A stretch of DNA of 64,000 nucleotides from Alphaproteobacteria bacterium (GCA_963422645.2 CAXXVO010000008.1:32001-96000), one strand, 5' to 3'; counted from the stretch's first letter, positions 1 to 7,794 are shown. The notes: generated by a model from the sequence alone, not told the origin. Numbers and translations are program-made.

Positions 1-111
1 ATTGCGGGCTCGGCGATGGCTCGGCGCCGCCCGCAGAAAGTGTTCCTGTCACGCCCGGATAGGGCGTTCTACATGGGCATCTCTCCGATGCGGCGAGGGA
101 GGGATGCCGGA

Positions 112-1587
112 ATGGACAAGGACGACGCGGGCGCCAGGCGCGAGAAGTGGGCCCGGCTGCGCTTTGCGGTGGTGGGGCCGCTTCTGGCTTCACCGCCGCC
201 TGCAGGCCAGCTGGGGGCCGAGTTCGAGCGTCTGTCGCAGCGCGACTGGGAGCACCCGTCGGGCAAGGGGCCGGTGCGCTTTGCGGCCTCGACGATCGAG
301 CGCTGGTACTACCGGGCGCGGGCAGAGGAGCAGGACCCGGTCAAGGCGCTGCGCCGGAAGCCTCGGACCGACGTCGGCCGCGAGCGGTCCATGTCGGCGG
401 GGCTGATCGCGGCGCTGCGCGAGCAGTACCGGGTCCATCCCTCGTGGGCGGCGCAGCTCCACTACGAGACCCTCAAGGCTCATGTTGCGACCCATCCCGA
501 GCTCGGCCCGATGCCGTCCTACGCGACGCTGACGCGGGCGATGCGCAATCGCGGCCTGGTGCGCGAGCGCCCCAGGAAGTGGCACGAGGGTGAGGACAAG
601 CCGGCGGTCGAAGCCCGCGAGGTCCTTAGCTACGAGGTGTCTCGCAGTCACGCGCTGTGGCACGGGGACTTCCACCACGGCAAGCGCCGCGTGCTGACGG
701 CGTCGGGCGAATGGCAGACGCCCATCCTGCTCGGCTTCCTCGACGACCACTCCAGGCTTGGCTGCCACCTGCAGTGGTACCTGGAGGAGACCGCCGAGGT
801 CTTCGTCCACGGGCTCTGTCAGGCCTTCATGAAGAGGGACTTGCCCAGGTCCCTGCTGACCGACAACGGCGGGCCGATGACGGCGGGCGAGGTCGAGGAG
901 GGCTTGCACCGCCTCGGCATCGTGGGGGCCACGACACTCGCTTACAGCCCCCATCAAAATGGAAAAATCGAGTCGTTCTGGGGCACGGTCGAGGGCCGCC
1001 TGATGGCTCAGCTCGAAGGCGTCGACGCGCTCACCCTGAAGATGCTCAACGACGCCACCATAGCCTGGCTGGAGCAGGACTACCATCGGCGGGTGCACCG
1101 CGAGCTCGGCATGACGCCGCATGAACGCCTCGCCGGGAGCGTCAAGGCATCGAGGCCCTGCCCCGCCTCGGACGAGCTCAAGGCGGCCTTCCGCATCGCC
1201 AGGAAGCGCACGCTCAGGCGCTCGGACGGCACCGTCTCGGTCGAGGGCATCCGCTACCAGGTGCCACAGCCGTGGCGCCACCTGAGGACGCTCTGGGTCC
1301 GCTATGCGCGCTGGGACCTCAGCGGCGTCGATCTGGTGGAAGGCCGAAGCGGCGAGCGGCTGTGCACGCTGTACCCCCTCGACAAGCGCGGCAACGCCGA
1401 TGGCGTCCGCCGTCCTGCGAGACCCGGCAGCGACCATGGCGGCGCCAGCGCGGGCGTCGGCGAACTTCCGCCGCTGCTCAAGGGCGTGCTCGACGCCCAG
1501 GCCGCAACAGGCCTGCCGCCGGCCTGGGTACCCCATAACAAGACGCCCGGTCCGGGCGAGGACGACGATCAGGGAGATCCGTCATGA
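112..1587 (+). CDS. DDE (rve/Mu-like, TnsB-type) integrase/transposase
   Basis: Motifs WHGDFH, LLTDNG and NGKIESFW give the D-D-E triad. N-terminal HTH-like region (STIERWYYR); C-terminal R-x-DGTVS-x-x-G-x-x-Y-x-VP resembles Mu transposase. ATG at 112 follows a GGAGG-like RBS, but the frame is open from position 1. Confidence 0.9.
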   Translation: MDKDDAGARREKWARLRFAVVGPLLASPPPAGQLGAEFERLSQRDWEHPSGKGPVRFAASTIERWYYRARAEEQDPVKALRRKPRTDVGRERSMSAGLIAALREQYRVHPSWAAQLHYETLKAHVATHPELGPMPSYATLTRAMRNRGLVRERPRKWHEGEDKPAVEAREVLSYEVSRSHALWHGDFHHGKRRVLTASGEWQTPILLGFLDDHSRLGCHLQWYLEETAEVFVHGLCQAFMKRDLPRSLLTDNGGPMTAGEVEEGLHRLGIVGATTLAYSPHQNGKIESFWGTVEGRLMAQLEGVDALTLKMLNDATIAWLEQDYHRRVHRELGMTPHERLAGSVKASRPCPASDELKAAFRIARKRTLRRSDGTVSVEGIRYQVPQPWRHLRTLWVRYARWDLSGVDLVEGRSGERLCTLYPLDKRGNADGVRRPARPGSDHGGASAGVGELPPLLKGVLDAQAATGLPPAWVPHNKTPGPGEDDDQGDPS

Positions 1588-2417
1588 ACCGCGAGCTGCT
1601 CACCTTCTACGGGCTCAAATGGAACCCCTTCGCCACCGACCTTCCGGTCGACAGCCTCATGGTGAGCCCCGCCGTCGACAGCTTCTGCCTCAGAATCGAG
1701 CATCATCTTGTGCGCCAGGGCGGCTTCGCGTTGATCGCCGGCGAGCCCGGCACCGGAAAGAGCGTGGCGTTGCGCGTGCTCGCCGACCGCCTCGGCCGCT
1801 CGGACGGGCTCAGGGTCTGTGCCATCACCCACCCCTCTTCCAGGCTGTCCGACTTCTACCGCGAGATCGGCGGGATGTTCGGCGTCGACCTGATGTACAA
1901 CAACCGCTGGGCCAGCTTCAAAAACCTGCGCGAGCGATGGCTCACCCATGTCGACGACACCCGCATGCGGCCCGTGGTGCTCATCGACGAGGCCCAGGAG
2001 CTGCTGCCCTCGGTGATCTCCGAGATCCGCCTGCTGGCGTCCACCGACTTCGACTCGCGCGCCATCCTCTCGGTCGTCTTCGCCGGCGACAGCCGCCTGA
2101 TCGACAGGCTCCGCCAGCCCGACTTGCAGCCCATCGCCTCGCGCCTGCGCCAGCGCCTGGTCATGACCCAGGCAGACGCCGGCGACCTCGCGGCCCTGCT
2201 CGACCATCTGGTCGAGCAGGCCGGCAATCCGGGCCTCATGAGCGCAGAGCTCAAGGACACCCTGGTCACCCACGCCGGCGGCAACCCCAGGGCGCTTACC
2301 GTCATGGGCGACATGCTGCTCGCCGCCGGCGCCGAGAAGAACCGCGAGGTTCTCGACGAGAAGCTCTTCATGGAGATCCTGGGCGAGCCCGCCAAGCCGA
2401 AGAGGGCACGGCGGTGA
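1584..2417 (+). CDS. ExeA-like / TnsC-type AAA+ ATPase, transposition helper
   Basis: N-terminal FYGLKWNPF, Walker A GEPGTGKS, Walker B VLIDEAQ, GNPR motif; ATGA overlap with the transposase. Confidence 0.88.
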   Translation: MNRELLTFYGLKWNPFATDLPVDSLMVSPAVDSFCLRIEHHLVRQGGFALIAGEPGTGKSVALRVLADRLGRSDGLRVCAITHPSSRLSDFYREIGGMFGVDLMYNNRWASFKNLRERWLTHVDDTRMRPVVLIDEAQELLPSVISEIRLLASTDFDSRAILSVVFAGDSRLIDRLRQPDLQPIASRLRQRLVMTQADAGDLAALLDHLVEQAGNPGLMSAELKDTLVTHAGGNPRALTVMGDMLLAAGAEKNREVLDEKLFMEILGEPAKPKRARR

Positions 2418-3412
2418 AGGGCTTCCCGACACGGGCGCCGATGCAGCTCGAGGATCGCCCCCGGGCGCAACAGTGGATGGTGGACACGCTGTGGGCCGAG
2501 CAGGCCGTGGGCATCGTCGGCGGCGAGCCCAAGTGCGGCAAATCCCTGCTCGCGCTCGATCTCGCCGTCGCCGTGGCCACCGGCGTCCCATGCCTGCGCC
2601 ACTACCGCCCCAGCGCAAGCGGCACCGTGCTGCTCTTCGCCGCCGAGGACGCCGGCCACAGGGTGCGCAAGCGTCTGCAGGGGATCGCCCGCGCCGCCGC
2701 CACCCCCTTCGACGAACTCGACATCGCCGTCATCGACGTGCCCACCCTGCGTCTCGACCGGCCCGGCGACCGTCAACGCCTGCAGCAGACCGTGGAGCGC
2801 ATCGAACCGCGCCTCCTGATCCTCGATCCCCTGGTCCGCCTGCACAGCGTCGACGAGAACGCCGTCGCAGAGATCGCCCCCATCCTCGGCTTCCTGCGCG
2901 AACTGCAGCGCCGCTTCGAAACCGCCGTCCTCCTCGTCCACCACGCCCGCAAGAGCGGCGGCACCCGGCCGGGGCAGGCCCTGCGCGGGAGCAGCGAGCT
3001 GCACGCTTGGGGTGACTCAAATCTGTACCTGCGCCGGCGCGACAAGAAGATCGTCATGACGGTCGAGCAGCGCGACGCCCGGGGCCTCAACGACATCGAG
3101 CTGGAACTCGTCGACGGCGGACATGGGCCGGCCTTCCGTCTGCACCAGGACGCGGCAGATGAAGACAGGCACGAGCCCGCCACCGTCGAGCAGCGCGTCT
3201 TCAAGGCGATCGAGCAGGCCGAAAAGCCGCTCTCGAAAGCCCAGATCCGCTCACGCGCCGCTGCCCGCAACGCCACCGTCGTTGCCGCCATCGAGAGCCT
3301 CACCAGGGAGGGGCGCATCGAACGGGCGCCCAGGGGTGGCTATCGCCTCGCAGCCGCCGAGGCGCACCGGGAGCCGCAATCCCCTGCCGCCATCAACGGA
3401 AGTGCGGGATGA
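2414..3412 (+). CDS. RecA-superfamily ATPase/helicase (AAA_25 / RSF1010 RepA-like) with C-terminal winged-helix
   Basis: GTG start overlaps the upstream TGA. Walker A GEPKCGKS, AAED, Walker B LLILD, VHHARK and RGSSEL motifs; HTH-like tail LSKAQIRSR...AIESLTREGRI. Confidence 0.85.
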   Translation: MKGFPTRAPMQLEDRPRAQQWMVDTLWAEQAVGIVGGEPKCGKSLLALDLAVAVATGVPCLRHYRPSASGTVLLFAAEDAGHRVRKRLQGIARAAATPFDELDIAVIDVPTLRLDRPGDRQRLQQTVERIEPRLLILDPLVRLHSVDENAVAEIAPILGFLRELQRRFETAVLLVHHARKSGGTRPGQALRGSSELHAWGDSNLYLRRRDKKIVMTVEQRDARGLNDIELELVDGGHGPAFRLHQDAADEDRHEPATVEQRVFKAIEQAEKPLSKAQIRSRAAARNATVVAAIESLTREGRIERAPRGGYRLAAAEAHREPQSPAAINGSAG

Positions 3413-3473
3413 GGCGTTCCCGTTCCCGTTCCCGGAACTCTTAAGCGTTGAAGGGTACAGGAACGGGAACGCC
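3413..3473. repeat. Perfect 14-bp inverted repeat with CGTTCC tandem units; origin-like
   Basis: GGCGTTCCCGTTCC (3413-3426) and GGAACGGGAACGCC (3460-3473) are exact reverse complements; three tandem CGTTCC units start in the left arm. Confidence 0.8.
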
Positions 3474-3514
3474 GTCAGCCTCCCTTCCAAGCAGACCTTC
3501 GCCGGGACCCGGCA

Positions 3515-4384
3515 ATGAGCGGCGGCGATCCCCTGGCCACCTGCCGCAACATCCCCCTCGACCGGGTCGCCGCCGCCCTCGGCTACCGCAGAGACCCGAC
3601 CGACCGGGCGCGCTTCAAGCGCGGGGGCTCGGTCATCAGCATCAACGGCGAGAAGTTCTTCGATCACCTGCGCGGCACGGGAGGGGGTGGCGCCATCGAC
3701 CTCGTCATCCATGCGACGGGATGCCGCTTCCCGGAAGCCCTCCGCTTCCTCGGAAGCCATGAGGGGCGGAGGGAGATCACCACCATCCCAGCCGCCCCGC
3801 GACGCCTGCGGCTGCCAAGGCCCAGTCCCCGCGCCTGGCCCAGGGTCCGGGACGCCCTCATCCGCCAACGCGCTATCGGCACCGACGTGCTCGAAGCCTG
3901 CCACGGCCGAGGCCTCCTCTACGCCGATGACAGGATCAACGCCGTCTTCATCTGCCGAAACGCCAGCGGGCACACGACCGGCGCCGAGATCCTCGGCACC
4001 GCGCCGCAGCCCGGAACAAAACGCTTCAGGGGCATGGCCCCGGGATCGCGCAAGGCGCGTGGCGGCTTCTGGCTCCACTGCGACCGAAACCAGCCCGCCC
4101 TCGTCATCCTCACCGAGAGCGCCGTCGACGCCATCTCTGCACGAAGCCTGCGCGTCGAGGGGACGCGCGAGAACGGCGCCGTCGTCGCCTCAACCGCCGG
4201 CATCGCCAGCTCGGTCCCGCCCTGGATCAAGGAGTGGAAGCCACGTCGCATCGTCTGTGCCTACGACGCAGACAGCGCCGGCGACACTGCCGCCGAGCAT
4301 CTCGTGCTCAACGATCCAAGGGTGAAAAGGTTGCGCCCACGACACGCCAAGGACTGGAACGAGATGCTCCTGCGGTCTCGATGA
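3515..4384 (+). CDS. Toprim-domain primase-like protein (DUF3991/Toprim architecture)
   Basis: N-terminal GGGAIDLV...F-x-EAL-x-FL resembles primase N-terminal domains; Toprim motifs LTESAVDA, CAYDADSAG and KDWNE. Confidence 0.8.
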   Translation: MSGGDPLATCRNIPLDRVAAALGYRRDPTDRARFKRGGSVISINGEKFFDHLRGTGGGGAIDLVIHATGCRFPEALRFLGSHEGRREITTIPAAPRRLRLPRPSPRAWPRVRDALIRQRAIGTDVLEACHGRGLLYADDRINAVFICRNASGHTTGAEILGTAPQPGTKRFRGMAPGSRKARGGFWLHCDRNQPALVILTESAVDAISARSLRVEGTRENGAVVASTAGIASSVPPWIKEWKPRRIVCAYDADSAGDTAAEHLVLNDPRVKRLRPRHAKDWNEMLLRSR

Positions 4385-4480
4385 AAGCCAGGCCACTCAC
4401 CGCTCTCGCAGATCAACCAAGCGCCGCATCACGAACATCAAATAATCCGAAAACCGCACCATCAAATGCTGGGCGCACGC

Positions 4481-4843
4481 TCACTTTCTCGTCGACGGCT
4501 TGTACCGGTCGAAGTGGGCCTCCTTCCACTCGCCCTCGATGAATTCCCGCAACAGCGGAACAGCGCGTTTCGGCGCGGTCTCTCTGTCGGGCTCAGTAAG
4601 GGACTGCCGCGCGAGGCATTCCTTTCGGGCCTCGGCGATCCCCATTGTCGAGACGGGACCGAGAGAGACGCGCCGTGATACGCCTCCGACATGGCGCAAC
4701 ATGACAAAGGTCCGTGCTCCGGTTGACCGTACCCGGACCCCGAGACCCGGGCTGCGGCTGTCCCAGACGGTATATTCCCGCTCGCGGGGACGCAGGCGGG
4801 CGATGGCGGCATCGGTGAGGCGCATGCGTTTCCTGCCCGCCAT
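4481..4843 (-). pseudogene. Truncated tyrosine integrase (Arm DNA-binding domain only)
   Basis: LTDAAIARLRP...VWDSRSPGLGVRV is paralogous to the N-terminus of 4847..5968; it stops at 120 aa, before any catalytic domain. Confidence 0.8.
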
Positions 4844-4846
4844 GGC

Positions 4847-5968
4847 TCAGCGCTCCAGAATGGCGCCGACGGTCTCGGCGGCGTCCAGCACCATGGCGTC
4901 GGCGGCATGGGTGTATTTGAGCGTGGTTTTCGCACTGCGGTGCCCGAGCAGCCGGCCGATGGCGAGGACGGTCTCGCCCTGCCGCAATGCGATGCTGGCA
5001 TGGGTATGGCGAAGATCGTGAAGACGGACGTCGTTGAGGTCTGCCTCGGCGCGGATCGTAAACCAGAAAGGGTCCAGCCAACTTCTACCCGACGGCCCTC
5101 CGGTCCGGGGCGCCAGGAAGACCCACCGGCCGGTTCGCTCGATCCCGTCGAGGATCTTCCGTGCTGGGTCGGATAGCCAGACGGTTCGGGGACCCGTCTT
5201 GCTGTCGCGCAGGAAGAGACGGCCTTCCCGGTAGTCAGACCATCGCAGCGTCAGGATCTCGCTCTTGCGGCACCCCGTCAGGAGGAGAAGACGGACGGCC
5301 GCGACTTGAAGCGGCTTTCGTTCGGCATGAGCAGACAGTGCTGCGGACAGCCGGCGGATCTCGTCGTCGGACAGGAAGCACTCCCTCCCTTTCCGGCGAT
5401 AGCGCCGGATGCCCCGGCAGGGGTTGGAGCCCTCGGGACGAAGGCCCATCGTCTCCGCCTCTCTCATGATGACGGAGAGCACCGGCATGGAACGATCGGC
5501 CGCGACCGGGATAGCACGGAGCGAGGCGAACCAGTTGCGGACCTCCCGGCTGTCGACGTCGGCAACCGGGCGTCCCGAGAAGCACGGCAGGATCTGATTG
5601 CGCAGGTAGCCGCGGTTCACTTCGAGCGTTCGCGCCTTCCAGACCCGCTGGTAGCGCTCGAACACGGTCTCGGCGACGGCTTCGAAGAGGGTCTCGCCGG
5701 AATGGGGAGGCGTATCCTCCCCCCGCCGGATCGCGGCCTGCATTTCGTCTGCGCGACGCCGTGCCTCCCCGACGCTCATGGAGTTAGCATCCCCGACGAT
5801 CTTCCAGACGCGCTCGCCGCGATGCTGGCAGTGGATGAAGAAGCATTTGCGGCCCGAGGGCGAGACGCGGACGCCGAAGCCGGTGAGCTTGCTGTCGCGG
5901 GTGTCGTATGCGGACTTGCGGGGCCGGAGCGCTGTGACGCGGGCGGCGGTAAGAGTGATTCTGGCCAT
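4847..5968 (-). CDS. Tyrosine recombinase/integrase with Arm DNA-binding domain
   Basis: Catalytic residues R (TGCRKSE), K (DSKTG), HxxR (LHDLRH), H (LGH) and Y (TLKYTH) are all present. Confidence 0.93.
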   Translation of the reverse strand: MARITLTAARVTALRPRKSAYDTRDSKLTGFGVRVSPSGRKCFFIHCQHRGERVWKIVGDANSMSVGEARRRADEMQAAIRRGEDTPPHSGETLFEAVAETVFERYQRVWKARTLEVNRGYLRNQILPCFSGRPVADVDSREVRNWFASLRAIPVAADRSMPVLSVIMREAETMGLRPEGSNPCRGIRRYRRKGRECFLSDDEIRRLSAALSAHAERKPLQVAAVRLLLLTGCRKSEILTLRWSDYREGRLFLRDSKTGPRTVWLSDPARKILDGIERTGRWVFLAPRTGGPSGRSWLDPFWFTIRAEADLNDVRLHDLRHTHASIALRQGETVLAIGRLLGHRSAKTTLKYTHAADAMVLDAAETVGAILER

Positions 5969-6111
5969 TCGTATTCTCCCGGTTGCAGTTGCAGCCAGGG
6001 AACGGAGGGTTGCGGAATCCGTTCACCTGCAACAATTGTCAGGAGAAAAAACGACCCTGTGTCAGATGGTTAGAACCGAAGGTGCGTCGTCCGGTGTGCC
6101 TGACTGCGCAA

Positions 6112-6139
6112 GATGCCCGGAACGAGTCCGGGCATGACG
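6112..6139. repeat. REP-like palindrome
   Basis: GATGCCCGGAACGAGTCCGGGCATGACG has a 9-bp stem (ATGCCCGGA/TCCGGGCAT) and resembles alphaproteobacterial REP units ending in CATGAC. Confidence 0.6.
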
Positions 6140-6249
6140 AGAAGGGGGAAGGACTCGGTTGGAGGGGCAGCGCGTCTCTCCGACCGTATGCGAATGAACT
6201 TCGGAAACCGGACACTAGGTAGGGCCCGAGCTCCAAGAATCCACCCGAA

Positions 6250-7794
6250 CTAAGGCCGCACGGGAAAGCTCGTCGGGCCCTTCAGGTGCGCGAGCAGCGG
6301 CTGGACCCGGGCGATCCAGTCGCAGAGCACGGGGCGGGTCTCGCGCGGGTCGATGAGCTCGTGGATCGAGAAGCTCTCCGCGCGCGGCTCCGGGGACTGC
6401 CGCGCGAGCATCTCCTCCTCAAGCCGCTCGCGCTCGGCGATGGGGTCGTCGGCCTTGGCGATCTGGCGGCCGAAGACCACTGCCACGCCGCCCTCGACCG
6501 GGAGGGCACCCGTCTCGGCGGACGGCCAGGCAACGACGAATCCGTCAGGGCCGAAGTGCGCGGCCACGGCAACGCCATGCGCCTTGCGCACGATCACCGA
6601 CGCCCAGGGCACCACGGAACTCGCGGCAGCCAGCACGGTGGCCGCGCCGAAGCGGATCGTACCGGCCTTCTCCGCCTCCGTCCCGAGCATGAAGCCGGGC
6701 TCGTCGACCAGGCTCACGATCGGCAGGTGAAACGTGTCGCAGAGCTCGATGAAGCGGCGGGTTTTCTGAGAGCCTGCCGCGGTCATCGCGCCGGCCAGGT
6801 GCCAGCAGTCGTTGGCGAGCACGCCGACCGGCTGGCCCGAGAGCCGGGCGAGGCCGGTGATCGTGCCTTGGCCGTAGAGCCGGCCGATCTCGAAGAACGA
6901 GCCCTCGTCCAGCACCAGCGCAATCACGCGCCGCATGTCGTAGAGCTTGCGCCGGTTGCGCGGCACGATCTCGATGAGTTCCTCGGTCCGCCGGCCCGCC
7001 GGGTCGTCGGCCGCCGTGCAGGGCGGGAGCTCCCAGACGTTGGGCGGCAGGTAGCTCAGGAATCGACGGATCTCGGCGAAGGCCGCCGGCTCGTCCGCCA
7101 CAAGATTGTCGACGACGCCGTTCCTGGCATGCACCTTCGGCCCGCCGAGCGCCTCCTTGCTCGGGCGGCGGCCGAGCGCGCGCGCGACCACGGCGGGGCC
7201 CGCGACCATAACCTGCGTCGTCTCGGTCATCACCGAGAAGTGCGAGGCCACCAGGCGCGCCGCAGGCAGGCCCGCCACCGCGCCGAGCCCCGCCGAGGCG
7301 ACCGGCACGGTCGCCATCGCGCGAGCCACGGAGGCGAAGCGCGGCGGGGCGTTGACCGGCGTGCCCACCGTCTTGGAGCCGGAGCCGGCGACGCTGCCGC
7401 CCGCGCCCTGGTGCAGGCGCACCAGAGGCACGCGGTAGGTGCAGGCGAGTTCCTCCGCATAGACGCTCTTGCGCAAGCCGGCCTCGTTGGGCGAGCCGCC
7501 CCGGAGCGTGAAGTCCTCACCGCCAATCACGCAGCGGCGCCCGTCGACCGTGCCGAAGCCGAGCACGAAGTTGGCCGGGGAGAAATCGGTGAGCCGCCCC
7601 TCGCTGTCGCGGGTCGCATCGCCCGAGGCGCCGCCCAGCTCCTGAAAGGAACCGTCGTCGAGCATGGCGTCGATCCGTTCGCGGATCGTGAGCAGCCCCC
7701 TGGCGTGCTGTCGGGCGACGCCCTCCTCCCCGCCCTGCGCCTGCGCGAGCGCCCGCTTCTGCGCGAGCTCGTCGACCTCCTTCTCCCAGCTCAT
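6250..7794 (-). CDS. Acyl-CoA carboxylase carboxyltransferase (beta) subunit
   Basis: RERIDAMLDDGSFQE, DFTLRGGS, LGGPKVH...NGVVD, DEPGFM-x-G and IDPRETR motifs; start at MSWEKEV. Confidence 0.9.
   Translation of the reverse strand: MSWEKEVDELAQKRALAQAQGGEEGVARQHARGLLTIRERIDAMLDDGSFQELGGASGDATRDSEGRLTDFSPANFVLGFGTVDGRRCVIGGEDFTLRGGSPNEAGLRKSVYAEELACTYRVPLVRLHQGAGGSVAGSGSKTVGTPVNAPPRFASVARAMATVPVASAGLGAVAGLPAARLVASHFSVMTETTQVMVAGPAVVARALGRRPSKEALGGPKVHARNGVVDNLVADEPAAFAEIRRFLSYLPPNVWELPPCTAADDPAGRRTEELIEIVPRNRRKLYDMRRVIALVLDEGSFFEIGRLYGQGTITGLARLSGQPVGVLANDCWHLAGAMTAAGSQKTRRFIELCDTFHLPIVSLVDEPGFMLGTEAEKAGTIRFGAATVLAAASSVVPWASVIVRKAHGVAVAAHFGPDGFVVAWPSAETGALPVEGGVAVVFGRQIAKADDPIAERERLEEEMLARQSPEPRAESFSIHELIDPRETRPVLCDWIARVQPLLAHLKGPTSFPVRP

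Follow-up and report, generated by a model that had tools for sequence, protein, structure and literature searches.

Can a bacterial transposon carry parts that start its own DNA synthesis? The question is raised by a locus at the left edge of a 64,000-nucleotide stretch of the genome of an Alphaproteobacteria bacterium (GCA_963422645.2, CAXXVO010000008.1:32001-96000; G000:C9:32001-96000 in our numbering), below referred to as the window. Here, genes for a DDE transposase and a helper ATPase are followed by a gene for a helicase-like ATPase of the AAA_25 family, a palindrome and a gene for a small primase. An initial annotation, made from the sequence, described these components as a four-gene transposon of no named family, located between positions 112 and 4464. 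The analysis presented below shows that the locus is part of a five-gene element (Table 1), which is active, present in many copies and assigned to the Tn6049 family of DDE transposons, and that the AAA_25 and primase genes are new to this family. On balance, we think that the helicase-like protein, the palindrome and the primase serve the DNA synthesis of replicative transposition.

Extent, copies and family of the element

The extent of the element is seen from its repetition within the genome. When window positions -2999 to 7000 (negative numbers lie upstream of the window) were compared with all contigs of the genome using blastn, a block from about -705 to 4483 was found to be repeated at an identity of at least 99.4% on 16 contigs, and the integrase region to the right of 4483 was found to have no repeat in the same genome. 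Position 112, where the transposon had been proposed to begin, is therefore a gene start, and the element itself starts 817 bp upstream, at -705, outside the window. At the other side, the boundary at 4483 is found 99 bp past the stop codon of the primase gene, i.e., 19 bp beyond the end that had been proposed. Within these borders there are five open reading frames (ORFs), one more than initially described, and no further gene was found besides ORF0, the transposase, the ATPase and the two additional genes.

Probes for the ends identified 24 left ends, every one beginning TGAGCGCGCGCGG, and 27 right ends finishing GGGCGCACGCTCA, one of them diverged, with a different flank at each; counted as exact matches in the genome there are 24 left and 26 right ends. 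The termini are of the TG..CA type and define an 11-bp imperfect inverted repeat with TGAGCGCGCGC as the left terminus. The right termini are identical in the 26 right ends, and related ACCATCA motifs are found at the ends of variant elements. In total, 43 alignment blocks add up to 119.6 kb, which corresponds to about 23 copy equivalents or about 2% of the genome. Eight copies are full and uninterrupted, and a further four are split by other insertion sequences. In every full copy the helicase-like and primase-like genes accompany the transposase gene and reside inside the mapped ends, in agreement with the earlier proposal of one compact mobile unit. Thirteen copies have both ends within 12 kb, and target duplications were found around five of these, 5 bp long in three cases and 4 bp in two. 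Raised read depth, which had been suggested as a check, is also seen, i.e., in Logan contigs of run X2 the word depth is about 1081 over the element and about 35-40 on the flanks; this excess agrees with a multicopy element and is not itself a copy number. A junction of a right end with a left end was not listed in the Logan contigs of four runs, where contigs cannot show rare forms.

Table 1. Features of the element and its right-hand neighbours (positions counted from the first letter of the window)
Feature	Position	Strand	Basis and remarks
Transposon, part in the window	1..4483	+	whole element -705..4483 = contig C9:31295-36483 (L003:295-5483), 5189 bp
ORF0 (205 aa)	-555..62 (3' end, 1..62, in the window)	+	first gene; Cys-rich (zinc-ribbon-like) plus helix-turn-helix (HTH)
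DDE transposase	112..1587 (open frame from 16)	+	rve, PHROG 310, Tn6049 homology
ExeA/GspA-like AAA_22 helper ATPase	1584..2417	+	AAA_22 6.2e-19; 277 aa
AAA_25 (RecA/DnaB-superfamily) ATPase	2414..3412	+	AAA_25 2.5e-36, 125.6 bits (cut-off 27); C-terminal winged-helix-like tail
Hexamer-repeat palindrome	~3398..3488, core ~3417-3475	.	(GTTCCC)3 ... (GGAAC/GGGAAC)2-3; begins at the AAA_25 stop codon
DUF3991-Toprim primase (289 aa)	3515..4384	+	DUF3991 1.7e-10, Toprim_2 3.3e-9
Right end	4385..4483	+	subterminal CATCAAAT repeat x2; terminal ...GGGCGCACGCTCA, imperfect 11-bp inverted repeat of TGAGCGCGCGC
Integrase stump, outside the element	4481..4843	-	120-aa N-terminal Arm-DNA-binding part, Arm-DNA-bind_3 4.2e-9
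Tyrosine integrase, complete	4847..5968	-	373 aa, in tandem beside the stump

The presence of an integrase gene and an integrase stump directly to the right of the element raises the possibility that a transposon composed of the transposase and ATPase genes lies beside a separate remnant of an integrative element or a prophage, to which the helicase, the primase and the integrase would belong; integrase, primase and helicase genes are commonly found together in genomic islands. However, the boundary at 4483 falls between the primase gene and the stump at all 26 right ends, where the flanks differ, and the same five-gene unit is found elsewhere without that integrase. Furthermore, the stop codon of the stump is the terminal TCA of the transposon. 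Because the right terminus of the transposon supplies this stop codon, the element must have landed in the integrase gene, which was its target. The two-element explanation is thus refuted by the repeat boundaries, and we assign it practically no probability.

The transposase contains the catalytic triad D218, D283 and E319 (numbered in the 523-aa frame), i.e., a DD35E arrangement, and its start at 112 agrees with the N-termini of its homologues. Matches to family models are modest: Pfam rve is found at 2.7e-6 (28 bits, under the cut-off of 32.6), and the best NCBIfam model is IS481 (NF033577; 9e-34, 117.3 bits, under the cut-off of 224), followed by IS3, where the scores in the IS21, IS3 and IS481 models are all below the respective cut-offs. 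The profile of PHROG 310 (transposase) is matched at 6.2e-35. For the helper ATPase, TIGR03015 is matched at 6.8e-28, under the cut-off, and PHROG 296 ("DNA transposition protein") at 6e-19. The translational coupling noted earlier is present, with an ATGA overlap of the transposase and ATPase genes at 1584-1587 and a GTGA overlap of the ATPase and AAA_25 genes at 2414-2417. ORF0 gives only a weak Pfam match (HTH_23, 0.0018); its neighbours in the ESM Atlas partly carry DUF6431, which is a lead only.

Among described elements, the closest by these three proteins is Tn6049, known from Cupriavidus metallidurans CH34 and from plasmid pHS87a of Pseudomonas aeruginosa. The transposase has 47.8% identity, along 95% of its length, with that of the Tn6049 copies on pHS87a and the CH34 replicons (E 3e-131), the helper ATPase 50% along 277 of 277 residues (E 3e-94) and ORF0 41% along 152 residues with the first ORF of the pHS87a copy (E 2e-33). 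Given these identities of 41%, 48% and 50%, the core belongs to the Tn6049 family. Shared features include the gene order, i.e., a small Cys-rich ORF, a DDE transposase and an overlapping ATPase, as well as a short, imperfect inverted repeat at TG..CA ends, a short target duplication (4 bp in Tn6049, 4-5 bp here), a high copy number and an association with genomic islands and integrase genes. In the sections of the reports cited here, Tn6049 is described as a 3.5-kb element that carries a gspA ATPase gene and is found in 12 copies in CH34 (PMC2864759); its imperfect inverted repeat is given as 12 bp long with TG at the start, and its duplication as 4 bp (PMC4739549). The annotated order in the pHS87a copy is a small ORF, the transposase, a 277-aa ATPase and a 90-aa ORF. 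This fourth ORF displays no similarity to the AAA_25 gene or to the primase, and where it ends Tn6049, the element described here harbors the AAA_25 gene, the hexamer-repeat palindrome and the primase gene. Because of the difference in length (5189 bp and 3.5 kb) and the unrelated fourth ORF, we file the element as a variant within the Tn6049 family rather than as Tn6049.

As regards the initial statement that the architecture belongs to no named family, it does not hold for the core, but it does for the addition of helicase, palindrome and primase, which is undescribed in the literature searched. These searches found no DDE transposon with a primase or a helicase; ISfinder, TnCentral and subscription journals lay outside their scope. 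New in the present analysis are the five-gene form, the census of relatives, a parallel case in the IS21 family described below and the cassette of helicase gene and palindrome, the commoner of the accessories. More distantly, the core resembles that of phage Mu, Tn552, Tn7 and IS21, with which it shares a retroviral-integrase-type DD35E transposase followed directly downstream by a helper ATPase gene, TG..CA ends, a duplication of about 5 bp and, for the two proteins, matches to Mu-like PHROGs at 6e-35 and 6e-19. It differs from them in that the protein similarity is remote and in that it has no TnsA, TniQ or resolvase. To our knowledge, none of Mu, Tn552, Tn7 and IS21 encodes a helicase or a primase.

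The distribution of the copies offers some observations on the behavior of the element. The pentanucleotide GCCGT stands to the left of a copy at C8:812891 and to the right of a copy at C13:41706, on a different contig, and the left flanks at C19:156077 and C8:253270 (GCCGG) both equal the right flank at C22:106271. Such split duplications are expected from replicative intramolecular events and equally from recombination between copies. At C3:164349/164350 and at C6:432375 an end of the element abuts the interior of another copy, and the points of contact (element positions 3358 and 3608) both lie within the AAA_25 gene. These two junctions, which we read as self-insertions, would suggest weak or no target immunity despite the presence of a MuB/TnsC-like ATPase. 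Seven truncated copies (C15:357692, C8:254777, C8:559770, C9:508263, C21:52138, C3:162385 and C8:417696) adjoin one and the same foreign terminus, TGTTGTTAAGCGTGG..., from which it follows that another insertion sequence has repeatedly inserted into the element; recombination between these insertions is the probable origin of the truncated halves. An interpretation of the truncated copies as aborted replication products was rejected because most breakpoints abut another copy of the element or the end of some other insertion sequence.

The helicase-like protein, the palindrome and the primase

The AAA_25 protein has a single match in the PDB, the RepA helicase of the IncQ plasmid RSF1010 (1g8y; 1.9e-8 by sequence and 4e-11 by profile), and its PHROG matches are the helicase halves of phage primase-helicases. 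In an alignment of 36 AAA_25 sequences, the Walker A and B motifs, GGEPKCGKS and LDPLVRLH, are invariant or nearly so, as are many core columns. Relatives are numerous in the protein collections, i.e., 7800 of 8000 scored candidates are found at E<=1e-5 and the best 120 are all at least 68% identical; among these relatives the ATPase core is nearly frozen and the winged-helix-like C-terminal tail variable. A search of 72,556 plasmids gave only four weak matches, and a class-wide sample of 400 genomes (E<=1e-20) identified one genome besides the source, which indicates that the lineage is patchy. The AlphaFold2 (AF2) model of the protein is poor (mean predicted local distance difference test score, pLDDT, 56) and was not used in the fold search, and a prediction of a complex of the AAA_25 protein and the primase from their alignments scored 0.00, which amounts to no verdict. 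From its similarities, we read the protein as a putative RepA-like helicase.

Directly behind the AAA_25 gene is the palindrome that the initial annotation had described as origin-like. Its predicted fold has a free energy of -61 kcal/mol (z -4.03), which was equalled by none of 200 shuffled sequences, and its repeats form a palindrome rather than direct iterons. Of 19 close loci, 17 have the palindrome behind the AAA_25 gene, with a hexamer that alters jointly in both arms (GTTCCC/GGGAAC, GTTACC/GGTAAC or GTTTCC/GGAAAC), and of 15 distant metagenomic elements, 12 have arms of the TTCC type. When eight sequences were folded to a consensus, compensatory double changes, C:G to A:U or U:A, were seen at two of 12 predicted pairs, and a search of Rfam gave chance-level miRNA matches only and no family for the palindrome. 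The palindrome accompanies the AAA_25 gene in all backbones examined and is therefore borne out as a conserved partner of this gene. Judged from these alignments, the concerted change of the repeats, in which a TTCC core stays fixed, is more suggestive of a symmetric protein recognition site than of a mere stem, and the winged-helix tail of the AAA_25 protein would be the obvious candidate for its reader.

The gene that ends the element had been described as primase-like and of the Toprim type, which is confirmed by Pfam and by fold matches. The protein is composed of an N-terminus that resembles a zinc-binding domain but has no cysteines, the N-subdomain of an RNA-polymerase domain and a Toprim domain with E201 and D251/D253. 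Among 8000 candidates scored from 5.8 billion proteins, 1316 relatives are found at E<=1e-5, most of them with DUF3991 and Toprim_2. An alignment of 40 sequences shows no variation at E201 and D251, almost none at D253 and none in the motifs GSRK and NAVF; a conserved set of cysteines is not found in the N-terminal domain of these sequences, where D50, H51 and H66 are invariant instead. The structural model is of good quality (pLDDT 86.8). In a Foldseek search, all 40 matches at E<=1e-3 are DnaG, T7 gp4, Twinkle or T4 primases, and the first non-primase Toprim protein appears only at E 9e-3. With VIA-align, the top eight structures are all DnaG-type primases that match residues ~85-289, from the T7 fragment 1nui (Z 14.4, root-mean-square deviation 6.3, 183 residues aligned) and Aquifex DnaG (Z 13.1) to T4 gp61 (Z 10.0, the lowest of the eight), whereas gyrase, topoisomerase, RecR and RNase M5 match only residues ~185-289 (Z<=8.8). 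For residues 3-84, the match is to the DnaG zinc-binding domain (1d0q, Z 7.4). Because the DnaG-type matches cover the RNA-polymerase domain as well as the zinc-binding-like N-terminus, the protein is, as modeled, a complete small primase of the DnaG/T7-gp4 type without zinc ligands and without a helicase-binding tail.

An ATPase gene directly before a Toprim gene is also what would be expected of a defence system, in which an ATPase would act with a Toprim nuclease, as in OLD/Gabija or PARIS, and which the transposon would carry much as defence genes are carried by Tn7-like elements. In the sections of a survey of transposon cargo cited here, Toprim nucleases with ATPase partners are frequent and Toprim is mentioned only as the OLD/Gabija nuclease (PMC8649781). 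The present protein, however, has the full fold of a primase core and is not a bare Toprim nuclease, its partner is an ATPase of the RepA/DnaB rather than the ABC/OLD kind, and each of the two genes also occurs without the other. In addition, PADLOC identified no significant system; its best matches are a DnaG-like domain in a DRT model for the Toprim part (3e-9) and AbiEi for the winged-helix tail (0.0055). We consider a defence role to be very improbable.

The combination of the two proteins has counterparts in known replication systems, each of which differs from it in some respect. As in the IncQ plasmid RSF1010, a protein whose only solved relative is RepA is encoded beside a dedicated primase gene, next to a repeat-built site that can form a hairpin. 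RSF1010 has a primase, RepB', that is fused to MobA; similarly, plasmid relatives of the primase of the element (30-38% identity) are often found inside genes annotated as MobV relaxases on small mobilisable plasmids, which is the arrangement of a conjugative primase. In contrast to RSF1010, whose replication set also includes the initiator RepC, iterons and ssi hairpins, none of the five ORFs is RepC-like, the module resides inside a DDE transposon and not on a plasmid, and the primase is of the DnaG/Toprim type, which RepB' is not. With T7 gp4, Twinkle and the DnaG-DnaB pair the element shares the primase fold, closest to the T7 gp4 fragment, and an adjacent gene for a RecA-fold, hexameric-helicase-like partner. 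Here, the two functions are encoded by separate genes, first the helicase and then the primase, the zinc ligands are lost, a DnaB-binding C-terminal domain is missing, and each gene also occurs alone in related elements.

Relatives with and without the additional genes

The order of the genes is conserved in other genomes. In a second genome of the same genus (G008) there are 12 identical matches to the primase, and a locus fetched from it contains the same five genes in the same order at 66-91% identity; in a third (G014), the ATPase, AAA_25 and primase genes are found in order on a short locus. The helicase and primase genes are thus found with the transposase elsewhere, as they would not be if they were part of a separate remnant. 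Compared with its counterpart in G008 (L015 and L003, respectively), the element is a mosaic in which the ATPase and ORF0 are 66% and 68% identical and the transposase, AAA_25 protein and primase 86-91%, which points to recombination between related elements. The ratios of nonsynonymous to synonymous substitutions (dN/dS) obtained from the element with its relatives in G008 and at L027 are 0.24-0.29 for the AAA_25 gene, 0.32-0.39 for the primase, 0.24 for the transposase and 0.48 for the ATPase.

A wider view is obtained from 35 loci in species genomes that were found with the AAA_25 protein, which are not independent as several are copies in one genome. At 29 of these, a Tn6049-type ATPase gene is found directly upstream of the AAA_25 gene, together with the transposase gene where the contig allows; four carry a different set of Cys-ORF, transposase and ATPase, 27-30% identical, and two carry neither set. 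In the relatives, the stop codon of the ATPase gene and the start codon of the AAA_25 gene abut. A primase gene is located downstream in six of the 35 loci and is not found in 17 that have ample flank. Copies within genomes define four-gene elements without the primase, 4.36-4.41 kb long (seven, three and six copies), and a five-gene element of 4.92 kb (three copies). The four-gene, primase-less elements (L029:6940-7272 and L039:6958-7316) end in about 300 bp of non-coding DNA, and a GC-rich structured stretch in this terminal DNA is shared by two diverged elements of this kind.

A less biased sample comes from metagenomes, i.e., the best 80 contigs of 553 confirmed relatives that were found with an alignment of the transposase, of which 45 were informative, i.e., had at least 600 bp behind the ATPase gene, and 35 were excluded as too short or without an ATPase match. 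Among the informative relatives, 16 carry the AAA_25 gene alone, one carries both this gene and the primase, one is Tn6049 itself and 27 carry neither. Where present (17 of 45), the AAA_25 gene is always found behind the ATPase gene, at 39-71% identity; in the single relative with both additional genes, the AAA_25 protein is 44% and the primase 36% identical to those of the element.

The additional genes are not confined to the Tn6049 backbone. A second backbone (L028:969-4792, L037, L038:1826-5570 and L059) encodes a 210-aa Cys/His ORF, a 442-aa transposase and a 266-aa ExeA-like ATPase; its core is 27-30% identical to that in the window, while its AAA_25 gene is 69-73% identical and followed by the same kind of palindrome. 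Because so divergent a backbone carries a similar AAA_25 gene and palindrome, the AAA_25 cassette moves between backbones. A third backbone is that of an IS21-family element of 4242 bp, composed of a Cys-rich ORF, IstA, IstB and a primase (47% identical), with TGTTG..CAACA ends. Its IstA scores 274 bits in the IS21 model (cut-off 160) and its IstB 212 bits (cut-off 200). This element is found in four genomes of the genus, i.e., G005, G011, G004 and the genome of the window (C22, L018:~3479-7253); in G005 (L014:3004-7245, G005:C1) there are 11 identical primase matches and three aligned copies that are identical throughout, two of which are surrounded by a 7-bp duplication. Other loci are L062, L063, L016, L064 and L017. 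The IS21 case is an independent recruitment of a primase. Thus, one or both kinds of gene have been recruited to the downstream end of three ATPase-assisted DDE backbones.

This exchange suggests a different explanation of the additional genes, i.e., that the AAA_25-palindrome and primase cassettes are passengers, which were acquired from plasmids or integrative elements and have no role in transposition; they could, for example, prime the second strand when a replicon that carries the transposon enters a cell as single-stranded DNA, by conjugation or otherwise, or simply hitch-hike. Such an explanation is consistent with the 27 of 45 relatives that lack both genes, with the exchange of the cassettes between unrelated backbones, with the plasmid homologues of the primase in MobV relaxase genes and with the mosaic relationship to the element in G008, which implies frequent recombination among elements. 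However, a set of passengers would not be expected to be as restricted as it is here, where the same two kinds of gene, and no others, occupy the same terminal position in three ATPase-assisted DDE backbones, and where the element has no further gene beyond these two and the three of the family. Translational coupling ties the AAA_25 gene to the ATPase gene, plasmids hold hardly any relatives of the AAA_25 lineage, and the purifying selection on the two additional genes equals that on the transposase gene. We regard a passenger role as unlikely, if to be reckoned with. The coupling to the ATPase gene, the fixed position and the dN/dS of 0.24-0.39, like that of the transposase, speak for genes that are integrated into the element rather than for loose cargo.

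The surroundings of the element in the window are those of integrase genes. Paralogous integrase regions on contigs C8 and C18 likewise have copies of the element no more than a few hundred bases away, which recalls the reported link of Tn6049 with genomic islands. The paralogous region was examined for the other half of the cut integrase and is too broken for a simple reading. A tRNA scan of the window and of the 20 kb upstream found no tRNA gene, and there is hence no tRNA-linked island boundary.

A proposed role in replicative transposition and its alternatives

Replicative transposition in bacteria is understood from phage Mu as wholly dependent on host restart proteins. In the part of the Mu literature cited here, DNA synthesis is started at the strand-transfer fork by the PriA primosome of the host (PMC5778457). 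In the mechanism that we favor for the present element, the transposase and the ATPase would make a strand-transfer intermediate or a copy-out intermediate as in IS3 and IS481, upon which the element's own proteins would serve DNA synthesis, either alongside the PriA-dependent restart primosome of the host or in its place. The AAA_25 protein would recognise the palindrome by its winged-helix tail, load as a helicase and unwind the element, and the primase would lay the RNA primers for the discontinuous strand. The outcome would be a replicative, i.e., copy-retaining, transposition that is less dependent on the host. Such a mode of transposition would fit the approximately 23 copies in this genome and the multicopy states in several other genomes.

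A related explanation places the synthesis before insertion. Here, the palindrome would be an internal origin, opened by the AAA_25-winged-helix protein as initiator-helicase, at which the primase starts; a circle, excised or copied out as in the copy-out-paste-in of IS3 and IS481, or a segment over-replicated locally in the chromosome would be amplified before the transposase inserts the additional copies. The IS3 family, together with IS481, is linked to circular intermediates, and the best NCBIfam matches of the transposase are IS481 and then IS3. A DNA-binding tail and an adjacent repeat palindrome follow the logic of an initiator-helicase, the gene and the palindrome move as a cassette between backbones, and relatives are found in plasmid replication and mobilisation (the RSF1010 RepA and the MobV relaxase-primase fusions). 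However, the IS481 score of 117 bits is far under the cut-off of 224, and target capture of a chromosomal donor is what a helper ATPase like MuB, TnsC or IstB would point to. Neither a circle nor a local rise in copy number is seen in the data, there is no separate initiator of the RepC kind, and most members of the family are without the module. Overall, we judge amplification before insertion to be rather unlikely. Fork building at the transposition intermediate and firing of the palindrome as an internal origin are two sub-forms of self-supplied synthesis.

A number of observations weigh against a role of the module in replicative transposition. Both genes are missing from 27 of the 45 informative relatives and from Tn6049 itself, which nevertheless reaches 12 copies in CH34, and the module must therefore be dispensable for transposition. 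Helicase-only elements are common (e.g., seven identical 4.38-kb copies in one chromosome of a metagenome-assembled genome) and a primase-only IS21 type exists, so that the helicase and the primase need not act as a pair. The primase lacks zinc ligands and a helicase-binding C-terminal domain, the helicase activity of the AAA_25 protein is predicted from its similarity to RepA alone, and neither a DNA polymerase nor a resolvase is among the five products. An operator or a hairpin at the end of a transcript would be equally good readings of the palindrome. Finally, eight of the 13 paired copies, including that in the window, have no matching duplication, which agrees with replicative events but to the same degree with recombination between copies.

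In its broadest form, the proposal would be that a widespread and so far undescribed class of DDE transposons carries a replication-start module, in which an initiator-like helicase of the RepA family uses a cognate TTCC-repeat palindrome as its internal loading site or origin and to which a DnaG-type primase may be added. The elements would build a replication fork on themselves and copy themselves with little help from host restart, either at the strand-transfer intermediate or by origin firing before insertion, and the IS21 primase would represent a convergence to self-primed transposition. This general formulation we put forward as a tentative one, somewhat short of an even chance. Transposons that carry their own replication enzymes are found among the self-synthesising casposons and Polintons; their equipment is a protein-primed family B DNA polymerase with Cas1 or a retroviral-type integrase, whereas here there is a helicase and a primase only, and no polymerase.

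If the proposal is true, the element would be the first bacterial cut-and-join transposon that supplies its own fork-building parts, i.e., a helicase, a loading site and a primase. Because natural elements with none, one or both of the additional genes coexist, a clean genetic test is available. The compact zinc-less primase and the helicase-plus-palindrome cassette may be useful in the study of primosome assembly. The element makes up about 2% of the genome and has cut genes as well as its own copies, and it therefore matters for the assembly and annotation of these alphaproteobacterial genomes. A self-supplied start of DNA synthesis could also account for the 10-25 copies of elements of this family in hosts from which parts of the enterobacterial restart pathway may be missing.

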